Source: an uncultured Candidatus Saccharibacteria bacterium (GTDB lineage: Bacteria; Patescibacteriota; Dojkabacteria; SC72). Taken from it: 40,194 nt of DNA. The position numbers and the translations under genes are program-made. Shown here in pieces: positions 6,682 through 15,194 of this stretch (its first letter is position 1; the number at the start of each line of letters is the position of its first letter). The stretch is taken from NCBI GenBank assembly GCA_964579365.1, contig CAZOFW010000002.1, positions 1-40,194 on the forward strand, in the 5' to 3' direction. The notes beneath the pieces were generated by a model. That model was given only the letters and a program-made list of their open reading frames with translations, had not been told where the DNA came from and made no database searches.

Positions 6682-6993
6682 CTAAATCCGTGAGAGAAGC
6701 TCTTCAATATGGAAACACCTCTCTATAATCTTTCTTACTTTCTTGATCAGATCAATAGAGAGCGTAGCCTCTTTTTGACTAATTATGATAGAGTCTTCGT
6801 TAATCGCAATATCTTTCAAACATTCACAAAGGTCCAATTCATCTAGTATGAACTTTGTAATTGCTGGTATTTCTATTCCAATCTCCTCCCCCTCTTCGAG
6901 AGCATCGAGACTGCACCCTTCTAATAGGCAACGATTAACCTTGAAATACAGAAACTCACTATCTTCTTTCAGCAAGATCTTAAGCTCTGCCAT
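6682..6993 (-). CDS. hypothetical small acidic protein
   Basis: 103-aa ORF rich in Glu/Asp/Leu/Ile with five Cys. It is divergently oriented from the ATP-grasp operon across a 156-nt AT-rich spacer. No family recognised. Confidence 0.5.
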   Translation of the reverse strand: MAELKILLKEDSEFLYFKVNRCLLEGCSLDALEEGEEIGIEIPAITKFILDELDLCECLKDIAINEDSIIISQKEATLSIDLIKKVRKIIERCFHIEELLSRI

Positions 6994-7149: not shown

Positions 7150-7818
7150 ATGGACTACACACCTTTTACTAAATGGGTACTGGATAATGGTATTGCTGAA
7201 CAAACCTTGGGATTACTTGTAGGAATAGCAATTATCGCTACAATTGTAAGCCTAGCTAGATACCTTGTAGGATCAAAGTCCTTTGGGATATATGTCCCAA
7301 TAATACTAGCTGTAGCATACACATATACAGGACTTAGATATGGGCTGATCATAACAGCAGTAGTCATAGCATCCTCCCTACTCTCTTTCCTCATCCTTAG
7401 CAGAATTAGAATGCACTACATATCTAGAATGGCAATTAATTACTGCCTCATCATAATGTCTTTAATTGTTTTCTTTGTAGTTGTTAAAAAATACAACCTA
7501 GGATTACCAAATATGTCCCTCATACAGCCATTGGCAATAATCTCCATAATCGCACTTTCCGACTTCTTCGCTAAACAACAGATTAAAAAAGGATTCAAAA
7601 CAACTATGTTAGTACTTGGAAGTACCATCATAATTGCCTCTCTCGGATGGTTCTTAATTACTAGAGAAGCTGTATCTGCCTTCATGGTTAACAATCTCTG
7701 GCTAATACCAGCCCTCATTGTAGTAAACATCCTTATCGGACAATTCTCAGGACTTAGATTTAAAGATCTTTTGAGATTTAGAACCATTATCCAAGAAAAA
7801 GAAAATGTCAAAAAGTAG
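7150..7818 (+). CDS. seven-transmembrane protein, resembling the 7TM module usually fused to an inactive transglutaminase (7TM_transglut-like)
   Basis: 222 aa with seven hydrophobic segments counted by eye: LGLLVGIAIIATIVSL; FGIYVPIILAVAYTY; YGLIITAVVIASSLLSFLIL; MAINYCLIIMSLIVFFVVV; IQPLAIISIIALSDFF; TMLVLGSTIIIASLGWFLI; LWLIPALIVVNILIGQF. It overlaps the next gene by 14 nt. The family call rests on the GxKxFGxYxP-like motif plus the known association with alpha-L-glutamate-ligase-like ATP-grasp genes. Confidence 0.6.
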   Translation: MDYTPFTKWVLDNGIAEQTLGLLVGIAIIATIVSLARYLVGSKSFGIYVPIILAVAYTYTGLRYGLIITAVVIASSLLSFLILSRIRMHYISRMAINYCLIIMSLIVFFVVVKKYNLGLPNMSLIQPLAIISIIALSDFFAKQQIKKGFKTTMLVLGSTIIIASLGWFLITREAVSAFMVNNLWLIPALIVVNILIGQFSGLRFKDLLRFRTIIQEKENVKK

Positions 7819-9265
7819 GAAGATAAAAGAAATACTGGGATTAAACAGACGAAACCAAGAGTATGTTCGTCCATTAAACCCACCATCTGCAAAAAGAATT
7901 GCAGATAACAAAATTCTCACAAAAAAGATATTGGCAAGGGAAAGAATTAAAACACCAGAGGTATATAAGCTTGTAAAGACAAAAAAACAGTTACAATTCC
8001 TAGATTTTGAATCCCTACCAAACAGTTTTGTCATAAAACCAAACCAAGGTACAGGGGGAAACGGTATTGTTGTACTCTACGGTAAAAAGAAAGGCCAAAC
8101 AGCCTGGATAAGACCAAGTGGAGAAATAATGACTGCAAGAGACATAACACTGCATATTGAGAACATTTTAGATGGTAGGTACTCCATGGGCTCTAGAAAA
8201 GACATCGCGATCATAGAGGAGAGAGTCAAAACAGATCCCTTTCTCAAGCAATATTCATACAAAGGAGTCCCTGACATTAGAATAATCGGATACAACCAAG
8301 TCCCCATAATGGCCATGATGAGACTACCAACGAAGAAGTCCAATGGTACCGCAAATTTGCACTCTGGAGCTATCTGTACCGGTATAGATATTAGTTCTGG
8401 TATAACCACCTACTCTATGCATATGCAGGATAGAAGCATAATGAGTGACTCCTACGAAATGATAGATTCAACTCTAGATCTTAAAGAGAACAAAAAACTT
8501 GGTGGTATTCAAGTACCATACTGGGACGAAATTTTAGAAATAGCTGTAAAGTGCCAAAGAGCAAGTAAACTAGGATACATTGGCGTAGATATAGCCTTAG
8601 ATGCAGAGAAAGGACCTGTTGTCTTTGAACTAAACGCAAGACCAGGACTTGGTATCCAGGTAGCAAATCAAGCAGGACTTAGATGGAGGCTGGAGAAAGT
8701 AAAGGGAATTGAGATAAAGAGTATAAATCATGGTATCCGAGTAGCAAAAAATCTCTTCGGGGGAGAGGTCGAAGAAAGCATCGAGGCAATTAGTGGAAGA
8801 AAAGTTGTGAACATTAACGAAAAAGTCCTCCTCTACTATAAGACACCCGTTTCTAAGAAGAAAAATGACCCTCAAAATCGTGAAGCCATAAGAGTATTCG
8901 TAGATACAGGATTAATAACCTCCCGTATAAACAAAACCCTCGCTTCTAGGATAGGATTTTTTGAAGCAATAGAGTACTTCTACTCTCTTTCCATACCAAA
9001 GAAGTTTGAAAGCTTCAAAGAGGGTCAAGAATACATAGATTCTAACCAATCCACCATTATAGGTCACCCAGACATCCTTAGAGTCGCAAAAATTGTAGAA
9101 GAAGGAGCAATAAAGATAAGACCTGTCATACATGTACATACCAAAATAGCTAGTGAAGAAAAAGATATTGAAATGGTTATCACCGAAGATACCACATATA
9201 ATGTAGTAATCGGAAGAAACGAACTCAAAGGATACTTAATAGATACATCTAAAACATTTACATAG
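7805..9265 (+). CDS. alpha-L-glutamate ligase-like ATP-grasp enzyme fused to a C-terminal retropepsin-like (DUF785 / 'ATP-dependent zinc protease') domain
   Basis: 486 aa. The N-terminal ~330 aa carry LGLNRRNQEYVRPLNPPSAKRIADNKILTKKIL, FVIKPNQGTGGNGIVVL, GVPDIRIIGY..PIMAMMRLPTKKSNGTANLHSGAI and LGYIGVDIALD...GPVVFELNARPGLGIQVAN. These match my memory of the RimK-related alpha-L-glutamate-ligase-like family. The C-terminal ~150 aa (nt ~8807-9262) carry VFVDTGLITS (D-T-G) and IRPVIHV....EMVITED..YNVVIGRNELKGYLIDTSKTF, matching the DUF785 pattern. Confidence 0.8.
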   Translation: MSKSRKIKEILGLNRRNQEYVRPLNPPSAKRIADNKILTKKILARERIKTPEVYKLVKTKKQLQFLDFESLPNSFVIKPNQGTGGNGIVVLYGKKKGQTAWIRPSGEIMTARDITLHIENILDGRYSMGSRKDIAIIEERVKTDPFLKQYSYKGVPDIRIIGYNQVPIMAMMRLPTKKSNGTANLHSGAICTGIDISSGITTYSMHMQDRSIMSDSYEMIDSTLDLKENKKLGGIQVPYWDEILEIAVKCQRASKLGYIGVDIALDAEKGPVVFELNARPGLGIQVANQAGLRWRLEKVKGIEIKSINHGIRVAKNLFGGEVEESIEAISGRKVVNINEKVLLYYKTPVSKKKNDPQNREAIRVFVDTGLITSRINKTLASRIGFFEAIEYFYSLSIPKKFESFKEGQEYIDSNQSTIIGHPDILRVAKIVEEGAIKIRPVIHVHTKIASEEKDIEMVITEDTTYNVVIGRNELKGYLIDTSKTFT

Positions 9266-9266
9266 T

Positions 9267-10259
9267 ATGAAAAAATACGAAGAATATTTAAAAGAGGCAG
9301 GAAATGTTCATTTGGCTTACTACATAGAAGCTGCAGATGAACTTGGAATCGACTACGAAATAGTTGTTCGCAGCCTTCTTGCTAGATTTACATACCAAAA
9401 CAAACACTGGTTCATAATCAATACCGTTACTCCACTTACTCCTTCTCCAGGAACTACCATTGCTAAAAGAAAATACCTTACAAACCTTGTACTGAGCATG
9501 GCAGATATAGATGTTCCAAAACAACAGCCACTTGGAAGTGCAATAGATGCAATAAAGTTCTTCAATAAATACAAGAACATCGTCATAAAACCCTCCCAGC
9601 AACTCGGCGGAATTGGAATAACTATGCTACCAGAGACAGAAGATCAGGTAATTGAAGCATACGAGAATGCATTACACAAAAGTAATGCAAAGGGAGCAGT
9701 AAAGGTGTTAGGTGAAGAGTTCATAAAGGGCGAAAATTACAGATTCCTAGTAGTGGGAGAAGAGGTTGTAGGAATAGTATGGAGAAAAGCCCCAGTAGTT
9801 ATCGGTAATAGCAAAAACACTATAAGGGAGCTAATCGAAATTAAAAACAAAGAGCGCAGAATGCTTGTTCTAAAACCAATTCCCATAGACACAGAGGTAG
9901 ATATAAGACTAAAAAGTCAAAATCTAACCCTCGACTCTGTCCCTAAGGATGGAGAAGAAATTGTTCTAAGATATAATTGCAATCTAACAACAGGAGGAAC
10001 TACAGAAGAATGCTCCGACATAGTAGATCCGTACTACAAGAAGCTTGCAGTCCAAGCAGTAAAAGAACTAGATCTTGAACTCGGAGGCGTAGATATAATT
10101 GCAGAAGACATTACTAAACAAGATAAATGTGGAATTAATGAGATAAACTACAACCCAGGTCTTAGATTGCATTACAAAGTAAACAAAGGACAAGTTGTAA
10201 GAGTAGCCATACCAATAATGGAATATATCCGAGATAAATACATAAATTCAGTTAAATAA
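9267..10259 (+). CDS. ATP-grasp ligase, cyanophycin-synthetase G-domain-like (stand-alone)
   Basis: 330 aa with IVIKPSQQLGGIGITML, GENYRFLVVGEEVVGIVWRKAPVVIGNSKNTIRELIEIKNKERR, LDSVPKDGEEIVLRYNCNLTTGGTTEE, LGGVDIIAEDITK and INEINYNPGLRLH. These parallel CphA's DHRVLVV..VVAVAERVPAHVIG.G..T..ELIE..N, L.SV...G....LR..ANLSTGG and VN..PGFRMH. Confidence 0.8.
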   Translation: MKKYEEYLKEAGNVHLAYYIEAADELGIDYEIVVRSLLARFTYQNKHWFIINTVTPLTPSPGTTIAKRKYLTNLVLSMADIDVPKQQPLGSAIDAIKFFNKYKNIVIKPSQQLGGIGITMLPETEDQVIEAYENALHKSNAKGAVKVLGEEFIKGENYRFLVVGEEVVGIVWRKAPVVIGNSKNTIRELIEIKNKERRMLVLKPIPIDTEVDIRLKSQNLTLDSVPKDGEEIVLRYNCNLTTGGTTEECSDIVDPYYKKLAVQAVKELDLELGGVDIIAEDITKQDKCGINEINYNPGLRLHYKVNKGQVVRVAIPIMEYIRDKYINSVK

Positions 10260-10261
10260 AA

Positions 10262-11932
10262 ATGGTAAAAGTACTTCAAGGATTGAATTTAGAAAATGAA
10301 ATCTCTTCAATTGAGATACATGTAAAGAAAACAGTAGATTTAGAAAAGATAATCAAGCTAATACACTCCTTCCACCCCATATTCATCAAAGAATATAAAT
10401 TTACCGAAGATACACTAAAGATCTATACCAATATACCATCGCTTTGGGAAGAACTTGGTAGTGTATTAGAGAGAAATTTGCCATACAAAGAAACTCTAGA
10501 TAAATGTTTAGAGATAATAAGAATAAGGGTCTCGTCAATGTCCACCATACCCCTACTCTTTGCAGCGCATAAGCTTGGATACGAGACAACCCCAACAATG
10601 GCCACTGAACAATCCCTTACATACACACCATCCTTTAATCGTCACTACACAGTAGGTTGTGGTAAAGGTTCCGAGATAATCTACTCAATCTCTTCTTCTC
10701 AAGATTCTAAGATTGCAAAAGAAATCCAAAGAGATAAATGGTCAAGTAATCTAGTAATTCAAAAACTTGGATTACCACTCCCCTCATGGGAGATCATAGA
10801 TTCATTTACAGAAATAGAAAATGTCTGGAAACATTTTGAAAAACCAGTTGTAATTAAACCAACAGGACTTACTGGTGGAAGTGGAGTTTCAGTTGGTATA
10901 AATACCATTGAAGAAGCTAAAGAAGCATACAAATATGCCAAAGAAATGATAGACAGTAAGCTTAGAAAAGATTGGCAGACCAAAGTAATGATGCAGGAAC
11001 AGGTAAGTGGAGAAGATTACAGGCTCCTAGTTATAGATGGCCATTTAGAAGTCGTAACAAAAAGAATCCCTGCATTTGTAATTGGAAATGGTAAAGACAC
11101 AATAGCAAAGCTCATAGAAGATACTAACAAAGATCCTAAGAGAGACATTACCAGTCCTGCACACACATTAAAACCAATTGAAATAGACCAACCATTGAAA
11201 GCATATCTTAAAGCACAAGGCTTAGATCTAAGCTCAATACCACAAAAAGAGCAGAAAATAGCAGTAAGAAAAGTCGCAAGTATGAGCCAAGGCGGTATAA
11301 CAGAAGACTTTACAGACAAAGTAGGACCAGAGATTAAAAGCATCGTAGAAAGTATAGCAACATCAATCCATGCATTCGCTCTTGGAGTTGATATAATGTG
11401 CAAAGATATCTCCAAACCTCTTACTACAGACAATGGAGCTATCCTTGAGATTAACACTATGCCAGAGGCATATCTCAACCTCTTCCCTGTAATTGGAATA
11501 GACAGAGGCTACGTTGCAGATACTTATATTAAAAAACTACTTGTAAACAACAAAACAAAAAAGATTGTTGTAATTGGTCATCCCCAATATGATATCCCTA
11601 CCACACTTAAACAGAAAAATATGTTCTCCTCCTACTTAAAAAAGGAAGATGTGGTCGGAGAATACAAAGACGGAGAGATCAGAATAAATTCACTAGCATT
11701 GAATAAAGATCTAACCAAAAAGCAGGGTGTAGAAGCACTTAAACTTAATGCCTCTCTTGATGCAATCATAATCCATCATCGAAATTGGGAAGAAGTAGCA
11801 AAAGATGGCCTTGGATTAAATAAAATAAACCTCCTAATGATAGAAACTTCCTTGAAAGAGAATAAAGATTGTATGAAAGTCATAAATAAATACAAACGAA
11901 AAGGATTAATATCTAAAATAAAGACATTCTGA
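10262..11932 (+). CDS. cyanophycin-synthetase-like protein: N-terminal domain plus ATP-grasp G domain, lacking a functional Mur-ligase (M) domain
   Basis: 556 aa with VVIKPTGLTGGSGVSVGI, GEDYRLLVIDGHLEVVTKRIPAFVIGNGKDTIAKLIEDTNKDPKR, LSSIPQKEQKIAVRKVASMSQGGITED, ALGVDIMCKDISKPL and GAILEINTMPEA. In the C-terminal ~130 aa, KKIVVIGHPQYD sits where CphA has its ILSVTGTNGKTT P-loop, and no P-loop is present. The gene ends in TGA. Confidence 0.8.
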   Translation: MVKVLQGLNLENEISSIEIHVKKTVDLEKIIKLIHSFHPIFIKEYKFTEDTLKIYTNIPSLWEELGSVLERNLPYKETLDKCLEIIRIRVSSMSTIPLLFAAHKLGYETTPTMATEQSLTYTPSFNRHYTVGCGKGSEIIYSISSSQDSKIAKEIQRDKWSSNLVIQKLGLPLPSWEIIDSFTEIENVWKHFEKPVVIKPTGLTGGSGVSVGINTIEEAKEAYKYAKEMIDSKLRKDWQTKVMMQEQVSGEDYRLLVIDGHLEVVTKRIPAFVIGNGKDTIAKLIEDTNKDPKRDITSPAHTLKPIEIDQPLKAYLKAQGLDLSSIPQKEQKIAVRKVASMSQGGITEDFTDKVGPEIKSIVESIATSIHAFALGVDIMCKDISKPLTTDNGAILEINTMPEAYLNLFPVIGIDRGYVADTYIKKLLVNNKTKKIVVIGHPQYDIPTTLKQKNMFSSYLKKEDVVGEYKDGEIRINSLALNKDLTKKQGVEALKLNASLDAIIIHHRNWEEVAKDGLGLNKINLLMIETSLKENKDCMKVINKYKRKGLISKIKTF

Positions 11933-11934
11933 CA

Positions 11935-12873
11935 ATGAAATACCTTGTAATAGACAAACGACCAAGAGTAAAACAGATGGAAATACCTACAGCTTCTGTT
12001 AGGATATTAGAGGAGTTAAAAAAGAAGGATATACCAACAGATTTTGTTTACAACGATGAAATAGAAATTCTTTTCACAGAGGGTTCCACACAAATTAAAG
12101 CTAAAGGGATAGATGTGAAGGAGTATACACACATCATTTTTAGAGGTCATGCACTTCACAACGACAGGCAGTATGCGCTTAAGAGATACATCATAGATTA
12201 CATTGAGCAACATAACAGTGACAACCCAGAAAAAAAAGTGCTCGTTCAAAATTCCAAAGCAATTAAGAAATTGCCATATTACAATAAGGTAGCCATTTCT
12301 TTGCTATGTTCACAATATAACCTCCCCTACTTTCAGACATATTACAGAACAGATGGTAAATATCTAGAACCCAGAGATATGTTAAAAGAATATCCATTAA
12401 TCATAAAAGAGTATGCTGGTATCAATAGAGTTGAGATAATTGACGGCGAAGAGAAGATTAAAAAGAATGTTTACAAAATAGAAAAAGACGAGGATTTTGA
12501 ACAAGAGGGATTAAAAGGTCAGAATCTAGGGGATTTCTTTCTTCAAGAATTCTCAGATACTGCCGAAGATTACAGAGTTTTTGTTAAACTAGGTAAAGTA
12601 ATTGGTGGATGGAAAAGAAGTGCATCTAAAGGCTTTATGACTGTGAATAAGGGAATATATGAGATGTACAATGAACCAGACCAAGAGATGAAAGAGATAG
12701 CAGAGAAAATGGCAAGTATTCTAGAAGCTGATTTCATAGCTGTAGATTTTATGTATATGAATGGTAAACCCTGTATACAGGAGATAAGCCTACATCCAGG
12801 ATTTAAAGCCTACGAAACAAAGATAAAGGGAACACCTGTTAATATAGCAGAAGCTATAATAACTGCATTCTAG
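11935..12873 (+). CDS. RimK-like ATP-grasp ligase
   Basis: 312 aa. DYRVFVKLGKVIGGWKRSASKGFMTVNKGIYE...IAEKMASILEADFIAVDFMYMNGKPCIQEISLHPGFKAYE aligns by eye with the RimK pattern DIRCFVVG..VVAA..R.A..G.FRSN.H.GG...A...A......AGVD.L....GP.V.EVN.SPG. Confidence 0.75.
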   Translation: MKYLVIDKRPRVKQMEIPTASVRILEELKKKDIPTDFVYNDEIEILFTEGSTQIKAKGIDVKEYTHIIFRGHALHNDRQYALKRYIIDYIEQHNSDNPEKKVLVQNSKAIKKLPYYNKVAISLLCSQYNLPYFQTYYRTDGKYLEPRDMLKEYPLIIKEYAGINRVEIIDGEEKIKKNVYKIEKDEDFEQEGLKGQNLGDFFLQEFSDTAEDYRVFVKLGKVIGGWKRSASKGFMTVNKGIYEMYNEPDQEMKEIAEKMASILEADFIAVDFMYMNGKPCIQEISLHPGFKAYETKIKGTPVNIAEAIITAF

Positions 12874-12944
12874 CCTCCTGTTGATGGACCGCCTATTGTC
12901 CCTGGACCACCATCCGTATCAGGACCAAAGTTAATATTCTTCAT
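12870..12944 (-). CDS. candidate small ORF (24 aa, Gly/Pro-rich): MKNINFGPDTDGGPGTIGGPSTGG
   Basis: Found by hand translation; it is too short for the supplied track. The ATG at 12944 is preceded by AGGA with a 7-nt spacing. Its TAG stop (12872-12870) interlocks with the TAG stop of the last ATP-grasp gene in the palindrome CTAG. The stretch is conspicuously GC-rich within an AT-rich spacer, 30 nt downstream of and co-directional with the MATCAP-like gene. Confidence 0.3.
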   Translation of the reverse strand: MKNINFGPDTDGGPGTIGGPSTGG

Positions 12945-12974
12945 AAATATATCCTACAATAAAATATATTCTTT

Positions 12975-14138
12975 TTAAATCCCTGCTTTCTTAAATATCT
13001 CCAACCAATCGTTCTTGGTTGGAATCTTACCTGCTTTTGGAATTAATCCCTCCTCTACCCACTCACACTGTTTGAAAGTAATCTTTCCAGAGTAAAGTTT
13101 CTGGTACAAAGTAGGATCCTCCTCCAATTTCTTCATAACCTTCCTAAATCCTCTGAAGTAAACAACATCCTTTGCGTAAATACCTGGATAAGATGTATCT
13201 GAAAGACCTCTTTTAACTCTATATGCTATATCAAAAGCCCCTGGTTTAGAAAAACTACCAAGAAGTACGTTGTAAAGCTGTCTAAAAGACAACTCCTCTC
13301 CAACATATATGGCCCATGTTAAAGCTGCTTTGTTTCTTAGAGATTTCACTGGGAGAAGCCCCATATTATTCTCATTCCAAGAAGCTAACCCCTCCTCAAT
13401 ATCTAAATATCCTGGTAAGTTTGGTTTACTTATTGCTTCAAAACCACTCATAAGACCATAATGAGAACGCAAAGCATGTGTTCCTACCTCATGGATTATT
13501 GTCTTTCTCAGTTGAAGTTTACTTTTACTAATATTTCCATCAACCAAAACCTCTTTTCTCTTTACACCAACCTTTACTCCGTTCTTAGCAATATTCAATG
13601 ACTTATTTACAGACCAATCTTCGAGTCCTAACTCCTTAAAGACAACATCAAAAGCAGAAACAATCTTGTCATACCCCAACATCTCTGGATCTTTTATATT
13701 ATCCTCTTTTGCTAAATTGTACTTACCATATTTACCCCTCAAAACTCTTGATGCATTCCTAAAAAGTTTTGCAGATGGTTTGCTATACCTTGCTACAGAG
13801 ATATCTGTAACAGCTTCATTATTCCCTACCGCATGCATAAGGTCACTAGCTTCTCTTTTAGAATCTATTAGGTCAATGTAGAAATCTGAGATCCTTGGAT
13901 CTACATCTGGGATTTCCTTTACCTCAGAAAGTCTTTTTAATATCTGCTCATTATTGTTACTAACTACTCTGTATTGGAATTGAGGCTCATATGTGTCTGA
14001 GTCAAAGAACTTTTTCTTCTCTGAATCTAGGTTTGTTGGTGTAAATACTAAGGCAATTGGAATTTTAAGTTCCCCCAAAAGCTTTGTTACTTCCTCTACT
14101 TTCATTGTTTTCTTAGCTTTTCTGAAGAATATGTTCAT
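12975..14138 (-). CDS. DUF1704 / MATCAP-family metallocarboxypeptidase-like protein (HExxxH ... EGLA)
   Basis: 387 aa. It has TIIHEVGTHALRSHYG (HExxxH), a nearby LDIEEGLASWNE (the QEGLA-motif position), and downstream YAKDVVYFRG and LYSGKI. These match my recollection of the DUF1704 'QEGLA motif protein' / MATCAP fold family. Confidence 0.75.
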   Translation of the reverse strand: MNIFFRKAKKTMKVEEVTKLLGELKIPIALVFTPTNLDSEKKKFFDSDTYEPQFQYRVVSNNNEQILKRLSEVKEIPDVDPRISDFYIDLIDSKREASDLMHAVGNNEAVTDISVARYSKPSAKLFRNASRVLRGKYGKYNLAKEDNIKDPEMLGYDKIVSAFDVVFKELGLEDWSVNKSLNIAKNGVKVGVKRKEVLVDGNISKSKLQLRKTIIHEVGTHALRSHYGLMSGFEAISKPNLPGYLDIEEGLASWNENNMGLLPVKSLRNKAALTWAIYVGEELSFRQLYNVLLGSFSKPGAFDIAYRVKRGLSDTSYPGIYAKDVVYFRGFRKVMKKLEEDPTLYQKLYSGKITFKQCEWVEEGLIPKAGKIPTKNDWLEIFKKAGI

Positions 14139-14174: not shown

Positions 14175-15194
14175 CTATCTTCTAAACTCTCGATTGAAAG
14201 AAAACTTTCTGTCACCTGTTTCAAGAAGTTCAAGAGCAATACCCGTACCTTTTGCTACACAAAATGCAGGGTCATCTGCTACATGGGATGGAACACCCGT
14301 TGCTTTGGTAAAAAGTCTGTCTAAATTTCTCAACATTGCCGTACCACCACTCATTACCATACCTCTGTCTATGATATCTGCAGACAATTCAGGAGGAGTT
14401 TTTTCAAGCACAGATTGAATACTCTTAATTATACTTCTAAGAGGTCGCTCTACTGCTTTGGCTACATCATTTGAATCTATAACTATGGATTTTGGCATAC
14501 CACCACCTACATCTCTACCTCTAACCTCCATCTCTTTTGGATCTTTTACTTCTAAGGCAGAGCCAATCTTTATCTTTACCTTTTCAGCGGTCTGTTCTCC
14601 AATTAAAAGTCCCTTTTTCTTTCTCATATACATTATGATTGCCTCATTTATGGCGTCACCAGCAACTCTCAAAGAATCATACTCAACTATGCCATCCAAA
14701 GAGATAACTGCTACTTCAGTAGTCCCACCACCCATGTTAATTATCATATTCCCGGAGGATGTATGTATTGGAAGTTCTGCACCTAGTGCTGCAAGAAGTG
14801 GCTCTGGCATAAGAGTAATATTCTTCGCCCCTACTGCATTCGCTGCTTTAAGTACTGCTCTTTCTTCCACAGAGGTAATTCCTGCAGGTACACTTATCAC
14901 AACATCTGGTTTAAAAAATCTTGATTTACCAAGTGCTTTGTCAAAGAAAAATCTCAGTAAGGCCTCAGTTACTCTAGAATCTGCTATTACTCCATTTCTC
15001 AAAGGTCTTTTTGCAACTATATTCTCCGGAGTCTTTCCAATCATCTCCTTAGCTTCGTTACCCACTGCTACTACAGTAAATTTGTTTACATCTATAGCTA
15101 CAACAGTTGGTTCTACAAAAACTATACCCTCCCCTTGAACAAAAACCACAGAGTTTGCTGTACCTAAATCAATACCTAATTTCTTTGCAAACAT
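14175..15194 (-). CDS. mreB: rod-shape-determining actin homologue MreB
   Basis: 339 aa with LGIDLGTANSVVFV, VISVPAGITSVEERAV, MIINMGGGTTEVAVISL and GMVMSGGTAMLRNLD. Confidence 0.95.
   Translation of the reverse strand: MFAKKLGIDLGTANSVVFVQGEGIVFVEPTVVAIDVNKFTVVAVGNEAKEMIGKTPENIVAKRPLRNGVIADSRVTEALLRFFFDKALGKSRFFKPDVVISVPAGITSVEERAVLKAANAVGAKNITLMPEPLLAALGAELPIHTSSGNMIINMGGGTTEVAVISLDGIVEYDSLRVAGDAINEAIIMYMRKKKGLLIGEQTAEKVKIKIGSALEVKDPKEMEVRGRDVGGGMPKSIVIDSNDVAKAVERPLRSIIKSIQSVLEKTPPELSADIIDRGMVMSGGTAMLRNLDRLFTKATGVPSHVADDPAFCVAKGTGIALELLETGDRKFSFNREFRR

Follow-up and report, generated by a model that had tools for sequence, protein, structure and literature searches.

A candidate accessory micropeptide gene at a convergent gene junction in some lineages of a Candidatus Dojkabacteria genus

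What is a reading frame of 24 codons doing between two converging operons of a very compact bacterial genome, and is it a gene at all? The question is raised by contig CAZOFW010000002.1 of assembly GCA_964579365.1, from an uncultured bacterium of the lineage Dojkabacteria, the first 40,194 nucleotides (nt) of which form the window analysed here. The minus strand of the window carries a short open reading frame (ORF) rich in glycine and proline, the micro-ORF, between a RimK-family ATP-grasp ligase gene, which ends an operon of such ligases, and the gene of a MATCAP-like metallopeptidase on the opposite strand. The original prediction had offered three readings of it: a primer, acceptor or precursor peptide for the neighbouring ligases, a decayed fragment of a glycine-rich gene, or a chance frame. 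We put the probability at about 0.7 that the frame is a real accessory protein-coding micro-gene, which would have arisen in an insertion at an ancestrally overlapping gene junction. Judged from the sequences compared, the gene is tiny and fast-evolving, and very probably restricted to some lineages of one Candidatus Dojkabacteria genus.

The minus strand from 12944 to 12870 reads, as originally quoted, ATG AAG AAT ... GGA GGC TAG and encodes MKNINFGPDTDGGPGTIGGPSTGG followed by a stop. The other positional details of the original prediction hold as well. AGGA occupies 12955-12952, 7 nt ahead of the micro-ORF ATG, the stop codon of the MATCAP-like gene is at 12977-12975, 30 nt upstream of the same ATG, and the CTAG at 12870-12873 is common to the stops of the micro-ORF and of the ATP-grasp gene (11935-12873). 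The Gly/Pro-coding part is indeed GC-rich: the content of guanine plus cytosine (GC) is 55% over 12870-12929, compared with 20-38% on either side and 36% in the 581-kb genome assembly from which the window was taken (G000). A direct-repeat search divided the Gly/Pro part into three 18-nt units, each encoding GPxTxG (family D2); Tandem Repeats Finder, at its thresholds, did not report an 18-nt repeat in the micro-ORF. The encoded peptide is short, non-hydrophobic, free of cysteine and probably disordered.

Eight alleles of the micro-ORF were recovered, seven of full length (18 or 24 codons) and one of 12 codons. The short allele belongs to G002, the fourth species of the genus, which was found from a weak DNA match. 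G002 has a 160-nt spacer at the same place, opening with ATG AAG AAT ATA TTA TTT GGA CCA GAT ACT GGT TCA TAG, that is, MKNILFGPDTGS and a stop. Six further allele types, MKNINFGPGTIGGPETGG, MKNSKFGPYTGTDPETTGGPSTGG, MKNPKFGPYTGTSPETTGGPSTGG, MKNINFGPDTEGGPETIG, MKNINFGPDTDTGPETIG and MKNKDFGPDTGTGPSMGG, were obtained from metagenome contigs that encode close relatives of the MATCAP-like peptidase, or ligase homologues ending in ..AIITAF. The sources of the alleles include groundwater, hydrocarbon and activated-sludge metagenomes. Each of the six allele types that were re-checked recurs unchanged in 2 to approximately 19 independent assemblies, and the alleles are therefore not assembly errors.

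The most conserved part of the peptide is the head together with the GPDT that follows it, with the consensus MKNxxFGPxT. In the full-length alleles, one or two more units of the form [G/D/S]-P-x-[T/M]-x-G come after the head. Unit 1 is present in all alleles but L040, in which units 1 and 2 are merged; unit 2 is missing from the L118 allele, and unit 3 is missing from the L113/L116 and L114 alleles. The number of units (one, two or three GPxTxG) changes in whole 18-nt steps. For the invariant residues K, N, F, G, P and T, the codons differ at third positions only, by transitions alone where they are two-fold degenerate and by any base where they are four-fold degenerate. T10 is invariant and T16 nearly so, and the acidic residues shift among positions 9, 11, 13 and 15, with a single Glu in L040. 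The ATG is kept in all alleles, even where the upstream spacer is unrelated. Four alleles share this 30-nt spacer without any difference, and L118 and G002 have unrelated sequence in its place. The interlocked stops read CTAG, TTAG or CTAA in all seven full-length alleles, which follows automatically from the ATP-grasp end TT[CT]-TA[GA]. In all three unrelated spacer types, of 30, 33 and 24 nt (window 12945-12977, L039 642-671, and L118), the micro-ORF shares its frame with the MATCAP-like gene, and each of the three has one extra in-frame stop between the two genes. The shared frame is probably a coincidence, with a chance of approximately 1 in 9.

The substitutions among the alleles carry the case for translation, and the conservation of the frame and codon periodicity, which the original prediction had named as checks, speak for a coding sequence: the frame, the ATG and the scaffold are kept, and third positions change most. 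None of the eight alleles has a stop in the sense frame, and each of the other five frames is interrupted in at least one allele. Variable sites number 6, 9 and 19 (of 23 each) at codon positions 1, 2 and 3 (chi-square p = 3e-4), and the minimum numbers of changes at these positions are 9, 10 and 25 (p = 0.004). The codon-periodic change extends to the AT-rich head, which has no GGWCC. For the sense frame, the pooled ratio of the nonsynonymous to the synonymous proportion of differences (pN/pS) comes to 0.30, a value below the 0.43-2.2 of the remaining five frames and above the 0.05-0.17 of the flanking genes. In four phylogenetically independent pairs of alleles, about 15 of 28 changes are synonymous, as against an expected 23% (binomial p = 5e-4). 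Relative to the window allele, the pS of the micro-ORF is 0.30-0.73 and matches the 0.21-0.69 of the flanking genes, while its pN is 2-7 times theirs. A frame that is kept in eight diverged alleles with codon-periodic substitution is more than chance would leave. As read from the aligned alleles, the substitutions show purifying selection on the amino acids of the head, MKNxxFGPxT, and on the scaffold residues P, T and G. The scaffold residues would thus be constrained, and the x positions appear to evolve several times faster than the flanking proteins.

The GC content of 55% has been held against the 36% background across synonymous divergences of 0.3-0.9. There are 38 GC-rich islands outside the long ORFs of the 581-kb genome, and most of them, judged by eye, read as tRNA genes, for which reason a sustained island of 55% GC suggests function. 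The islands that by eye do not look like tRNA genes (at least 52% GC over 55 nt) include C4:14335-14389, C8:7578-7651, C10:15461-15519, C15:4403-4457 and 14542-14599, C17:5621-5680, C20:4845-5218, C21:9161-9227 and C24:354-408 of G000. Such islands may encode small RNAs or additional small proteins that have escaped annotation.

The signals at the start codon are those of the genome at large. The original prediction placed the AGGA correctly and saw in it a Shine-Dalgarno (SD) sequence, a support that we reject. SD-like 4-mers occur at 4-11 nt in 8% of 442 long ORFs of G000 and equally in 8% of random positions, the start-site consensus of the genome is merely A/T-rich, and AGGA is missing in two of the allele types. 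In a genome without SD enrichment, the AGGA lends the micro-ORF no support. A position-weight matrix trained on the genome places the start contexts of the micro-ORF alleles between the 46th and 77th percentiles of true starts, and they score higher than 98% of internal ATGs; the negative set consisted of ATGs internal to coding sequences, and any AT-rich intergenic ATG may score well against it.

The junction at which the micro-ORF lies is older than the micro-ORF. Of 61 related genomes, 57 have the MATCAP-like gene, and in 25 of the 30 loci that were fetched this gene converges on a RimK-like ATP-grasp gene. In 22 of the 25 convergent loci the stops of the two genes overlap or abut (offsets of -20 to 0 nt), leaving neither a spacer nor an ORF. 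Two of these spacer-free loci are congeneric, those of G001 and G003, the MATCAP-like proteins of which are 88-89% identical to that of the window. An overlap of -4, in which the last Asp/Asn codon of the ligase is antisense to the last Ile codon of the peptidase, recurs across genera; because of this recurrence, the overlap is taken as ancestral and the 101-nt spacer of the window as derived. Among the ORF-bearing lineages of the genus, the spacer has a length of 83-160 nt. The N-terminal motif of the micro-ORF was found in two of 120 genomes of the order, G000 and G002, and the ORF is missing from two of the four species of its own genus. Synteny, which the original prediction had proposed as a check, thus has two sides: most relatives are without the spacer and the ORF, and alleles occupy the same place in other lineages of the genus.

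Searches for relatives of the micro-ORF outside the junction gave negative results. A longer motif run over all GTDB species returned eight matches, approximately the chance expectation, none of which is a related ORF. The ORF-less congeners G001 and G003 contain no relocated copy of it. A DNA search of 100 genomes of the family yielded AT-rich noise, with G002 as the one real lead, and blastn and tblastn searches of G000 with the spacer and the peptide, for a second copy or a source gene, gave only noise. A Gly/Pro match on contig C7 of the same genome was discarded, as it is the antisense of another gene. There is no indication of a mobile element: G000 and G002 each have one copy of the spacer, which is without terminal inverted repeats, and no duplication is visible at the junction.

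Within the genus, the state of the junction goes with the end of the ligase. Without exception, ligases ending in AF before the stop (..AIITAF) are found with an intact ORF, and those ending in AFSD with overlapping stops and no ORF. In the ATP-grasp tree, the ORF-bearing and ORF-less lineages are interleaved, with at least four changes, and a single ORF-bearing clade is rejected by the approximately unbiased test (p-AU = 0.014, for groups that were named after the tree had been seen). The presence or absence of the micro-ORF does not follow the phylogeny of the neighbouring gene. The tree of the ligase (11935-12873 and the homologues P0001-P0022) conflicts with the junction state within the genus, which points to recombination among Dojkabacteria species at this locus. 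Since the ORF-less junctions share one sequence and the ORF-bearing junctions share the AF end, we infer that two old junction alleles were exchanged among congeners by recombination; the alternative is repeated loss.

The same junction has been entered by other sequences. Genus g15 was considered as ORF-bearing, its ATP-grasp protein also ending in AF, and was rejected: the AF end is there due to an inserted kinase gene and an inserted methyltransferase-like gene, and there is no micro-ORF. In locus L126 of this genus (G030:C5:108300-112600), a gene for a 763-residue membrane histidine-kinase-like protein and a second gene of 500 codons lie between the RimK-like ligase and the MATCAP-like gene, and the 3' end of the kinase gene overlaps the 3' end of the ligase gene. 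In L029 (G043:C6:1097-5248), an order-level relative, the junction spacer of 135 nt consists of approximately 4.5 tandem copies of the 17-nt sequence CCATGRTCTRTATCTAG and contains no ORF; it is a different insertion at the same permissive site.

Several points weigh against reading the frame as a gene. The sample is small, with eight alleles and 23 informative codons, and the repeat units were aligned by hand. The micro-ORF is annotated by no gene caller in any of the approximately 40 contigs examined. The G002 allele ends after 12 codons, and two congeneric species live without the ORF, so that any function it has is dispensable. The naming of the groups after the tree had been seen counts on the same side. 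The Gly-Pro codons make GGWCC palindromes, on which there may be some constraint at the level of DNA. Lastly, the third codon positions of the micro-ORF are common to an antisense frame that continues from the ATP-grasp gene, and because they are shared, periodicity alone cannot name the strand. This plus-strand frame is open for 34 codons past the ATP-grasp TAG in the window and has stops in L082 and L085. The constraint is assigned to the minus-strand ORF because the antisense frame is stopped in these two alleles and has the higher pN/pS, 0.43, because the ligase gene always retains its stop, as either TAG or TAA, and because the ATG of the micro-ORF is kept.

A specific role for such a gene was suggested by its neighbours: the peptide would be a ribosomally made primer or acceptor, or a precursor resembling those of ribosomally synthesised and post-translationally modified peptides (RiPPs), which the RimK-like and cyanophycin-synthetase-like (CphA-like) ligases extend or modify and the MATCAP-like carboxypeptidase trims. 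We regard this role as doubtful. The micro-ORF does lie between the ligase operon and the peptidase gene and is probably co-transcribed with the latter, but adjacency is weak evidence, because a convergent junction is one of the few places at which an insertion survives in this genome. The conserved head and the fast x positions resemble a leader-plus-core layout, and Thr/Ser and Asp/Glu residues are present in every allele. However, the four ligases match the TIGR02291, cyanophycin-synthetase-like and RimK-family NCBIfam models, and none matches a model of a ribosomal-peptide maturase of the graspetide type. The PFFARFL and Phhx(1,2)h leader motifs (PMC8939145) do not occur in the peptides of 18-24 residues, in which the residue after each Pro is D, G, E, S or Y, and a pair of hydrophobic residues never comes next. 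The -GG tail, to which the original prediction had pointed as a feature, is not conserved: the alleles end in TGG, MGG, TIG or TGS, and these C-termini are not acidic, unlike the known acceptors of RimK or LysX. In favour of the role, no native substrate is known for the related Rlo systems (PMC11957051), and graspetides occur in bacteria of the candidate phyla radiation (CPR) (PMC8939145).

The distribution of the peptide bears most directly on this role. The enzymes are conserved without the peptide: 57 of 61 relatives have the peptidase, whereas only 2 of 120 genomes of the order have the motif, with no relocated copy in the ORF-less congeners. The peptide therefore cannot be the core or general substrate of the system. 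It is unlikely that, in a more explicit form of the same idea, the head MKNxxFGPDT docks on one of the adjacent RimK-like or CphA-like ligases, a chain is built on the C-terminal residue or on the side chains of Asp, Glu or Thr, and the MATCAP-like carboxypeptidase trims or releases the product; the variable x positions and the number of units would then tune the product between strains. If this were the case, the locus would encode a hybrid pathway of ribosomal primer and ATP-grasp extension and provide a first handle on Rlo-type products. A sortase-like PxTG and a lasso-like T-x-G...D/E reading of the peptide were also considered and rejected, the motifs being unconserved across alleles and a signal peptide or cyclase being absent. 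The tail of the seven-transmembrane (7TM) protein encoded in the ligase operon was rejected as a rival acceptor, as its C-terminus is ...QEKENVKK here, and does not end in Glu. The micro-gene is an accessory gene and not a core part of the ligase/peptidase system. The chance that it is nevertheless linked to the ligases and to the MATCAP-like peptidase, with which it is probably co-transcribed, is about one in three; it would then be an additional substrate or a competitive modulator. About as probable is a young micropeptide without such a link, born where a highly compact genome leaves one of its few permissive sites.

Still less likely is a non-coding element, in which GC-rich GGWCC-N13 repeats would act as DNA or RNA between the convergent operons, as a roadblock, termination aid or hairpin, with the frame being incidental. 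The element sits exactly where convergent transcripts would collide, but the terminator scan found no terminator-like site, and the fold z-scores of -0.8 and -1.2 on the two strands are nothing unusual. The palindromic GGTCC/GGACC recurs at a spacing of 18 nt, and the genome has only two places at which three or more GGWCC sites fall within 60 nt; L082 and L085, however, have a broken GGWCC in unit 2 with the Pro codon kept, and the head, which has no GGWCC, changes with codon periodicity too. The consensus structure across the alleles has an energy of -1.4 kcal/mol (alifold) without useful covariation, there is no Rfam match below E = 4.9, and ARAGORN found no tRNA.

It is very improbable that the frame is a neutral relic of an insertion, a duplication or the 5' end of a lost gene, which would have stayed open since Gly and Pro codons rarely mutate to stops. 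The dispensability of the ORF in congeners and the G002 allele, with its stop after 12 codons and approximately 100 nt of unrelated spacer, would suit a relic. Against it stand a pN/pS of 0.30, significantly below neutrality, the GC content held over the same divergences, and the ATG and frame kept in all seven full-length alleles. The kept frame and ATG, the low pN/pS and the excess of third-position changes likewise oppose the decayed gene fragment and the chance ORF of the original prediction. A relic of local duplication is hinted at by imperfect direct repeats at 12934-13005 of the window, which tie the start of the ORF to the 3' end of the MATCAP-like gene: GTAGGATATATTTATGAA resembles GTTGGAGATATTTAAGAA (15/18), and there is another pair (13/15). 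The word ATATTAAC is common to the ORF region and the antisense of the ATP-grasp 3' end. By a rough estimate for AT-rich sequence, the repeats are borderline at best, and local duplication as the origin of the ORF start was set aside, neither they nor the ATATTAAC word being significant.

Scarcely credible, finally, is a C-terminal extension of a neighbour by stop read-through, for which the open plus-strand frame with its shared third positions and the common frame with the MATCAP-like gene in three spacer types might speak, but the ATP-grasp stop is TAG or TAA in all alleles and its extension frame is stopped in L082 and L085, read-through from the MATCAP-like gene would meet two in-frame stops in each allele, and the Dojkabacteria genes at this locus translate normally with table 11.

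If the frame is an accessory micro-gene, its history may be outlined as follows. The spacer would have arisen once, by insertion into the overlapping stop-stop junction, and would then have spread through homologous recombination or been repeatedly lost. Slippage, or unequal exchange, between the GGTCC repeats spaced at 18 nt may have altered the number of units. The ORF would be the last cistron of the trpS-mreB-MATCAP-like transcription unit, as it is on the same strand, 24-33 nt past the peptidase stop, with no terminator between. Its translation would proceed without an SD sequence, from an AT-rich start at this distance from the MATCAP-like stop. The features of the junction are listed in Table 1.

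Table 1. Features of the micro-ORF and the converging genes in the window.
Feature	Position	Strand	Basis
Micro-ORF, 24 codons + TAG, product MKNINFGPDTDGGPGTIGGPSTGG	12870..12944	-	read from sequence
Head MKNINF, codons 1-6	12927..12944	-	allele alignment
Repeat unit 1, GGT CCT GAT ACG GAT GGT = GPDTDG	12909..12926	-	read from sequence
Repeat unit 2, GGT CCA GGG ACA ATA GGC = GPGTIG	12891..12908	-	direct repeat D2, 18-nt period
Repeat unit 3, GGT CCA TCA ACA GGA GGC = GPSTGG	12873..12890	-	direct repeat D2
CTAG, micro-ORF stop (TAG, minus) interlocked with ATP-grasp stop (TAG, plus)	12870..12873		sequence
AT-rich spacer, 30 nt, from MATCAP-like stop to micro-ORF ATG; contains AGGA (12952-12955) and an in-frame TAG	12945..12974	-	sequence
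Whole spacer, 101 nt, missing in most relatives	12874..12974		synteny, junction alignment
RimK-family ATP-grasp ligase, last gene of operon 7150-12873, converges on the micro-ORF	11935..12873	+	Pfam PF08443; NCBIfam TIGR00768 below its cut-off
MATCAP-like/QEGLA (DUF1704) metallopeptidase, 387 residues, upstream of the micro-ORF on the same strand	12975..14138	-	Pfam PF08014, E = 2.6e-25; NCBIfam TIGR02421

The plus-strand operon at 7150-12873 comprises five genes and, according to Pfam and NCBIfam, begins with a RloB-type 7TM protein. This is followed by a TIGR02291 (RloC-like) ATP-grasp protein, which has a C-terminal extension and is fused to a retropepsin-like domain, two CphA-like ATP-grasp proteins, and the RimK-family ATP-grasp ligase. 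The convergent minus-strand unit encodes, by the same models, a class-I tRNA-synthetase-family protein, an MreB homologue and the MATCAP/QEGLA (DUF1704) peptidase; the synthetase-family protein of this trpS-mreB-MATCAP-like unit is the TrpRS of the original prediction. The interval from the rplL terminator to the ligase operon contains, at 6682-6993 of the window, an acidic ORF of 103 residues on the minus strand, opposite to the operon.

The locus matters in several ways. Genes as small as the micro-ORF are missed by every annotation pipeline, and CPR bacteria are known almost only from such annotations; the names of close homologues assign this genome to one lineage of these ultra-small bacteria, Candidatus Dojkabacteria (WS6). 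The junction would offer a clean and datable case of micro-gene birth in an extremely compact genome, in which the overlapping-stop ancestor is still found in sister species. In the derived junction, an insertion of approximately 83 nt would have provided an ORF that has since been under selection, while the number of repeats and the variable positions changed. The ligase/peptidase system itself is uncharacterised, conserved across the order, and related to the Rlo stress-tolerance operon of Pseudomonas. The question of its substrate is narrowed, the peptide not being its general substrate, and the peptide, made synthetically at low cost, could be offered to the ligases and the MATCAP-like peptidase as a test substrate.

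RimK-family enzymes add amino acids at the C-terminal end of a protein or of a small carrier protein, as in the pairs RimK-S6 and LysX-LysW, the acceptors of which end acidic (S6 in ...EE, LysW in ...EDWGE) and co-occur with the ligase. The locus resembles these pairs in that the gene of a RimK-family ligase abuts the gene of a small peptide, for which C-terminal extension is chemically plausible. It differs from them in the peptide ends, which are GG, IG or GS, and in the absence of co-occurrence with the ligase. The tubulin tyrosination/detyrosination cycle also pairs an ATP-grasp ligase, the tubulin tyrosine ligase TTL, with a MATCAP-family peptidase and a flexible peptide tail. The likeness is an analogy only, as the peptide here has no acidic, Tyr-ended tail.

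The operon is similar to the RloABC and RimBK loci of Pseudomonas in its RloB-like 7TM protein and its RloC-like ATP-grasp protein with a retropepsin-like domain, and the natural substrate is unknown there, too (PMC11957051). The rloABC operon has an effect on how Pseudomonas tolerates osmotic stress, and its product RloA can cleave polyglutamate in vitro (PMC11957051). No micropeptide gene is reported at the Rlo/Rim loci, and the Dojkabacteria locus adds two CphA-like ligases, a RimK-like ligase and the MATCAP-like peptidase. Precursors of graspetides such as microviridins are likewise small peptides encoded next to ATP-grasp genes, with core-like repeats containing Thr and Asp/Glu and variable core positions (PMC8939145). 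The peptide described here lacks, unlike these precursors, a leader of 20-40 residues with the PFFARFL or Phhx(1,2)h motif, and the adjacent ligases are of the RimK, CphA or TIGR02291 type and are conserved without it.

The closest likeness of the micro-ORF is to taxonomically restricted bacterial small proteins of fewer than 50 residues, a kind that is already known. Like many of these, it is unannotated, has fewer than 30 codons, occurs in a narrow lineage and evolves fast, and it is detectable only by the kept frame and start together with codon-periodic substitution. The peptide family differs from the known small proteins in that it is in no library searched, and in being unusually well dated, since the ancestral overlapping junction survives in sister species.

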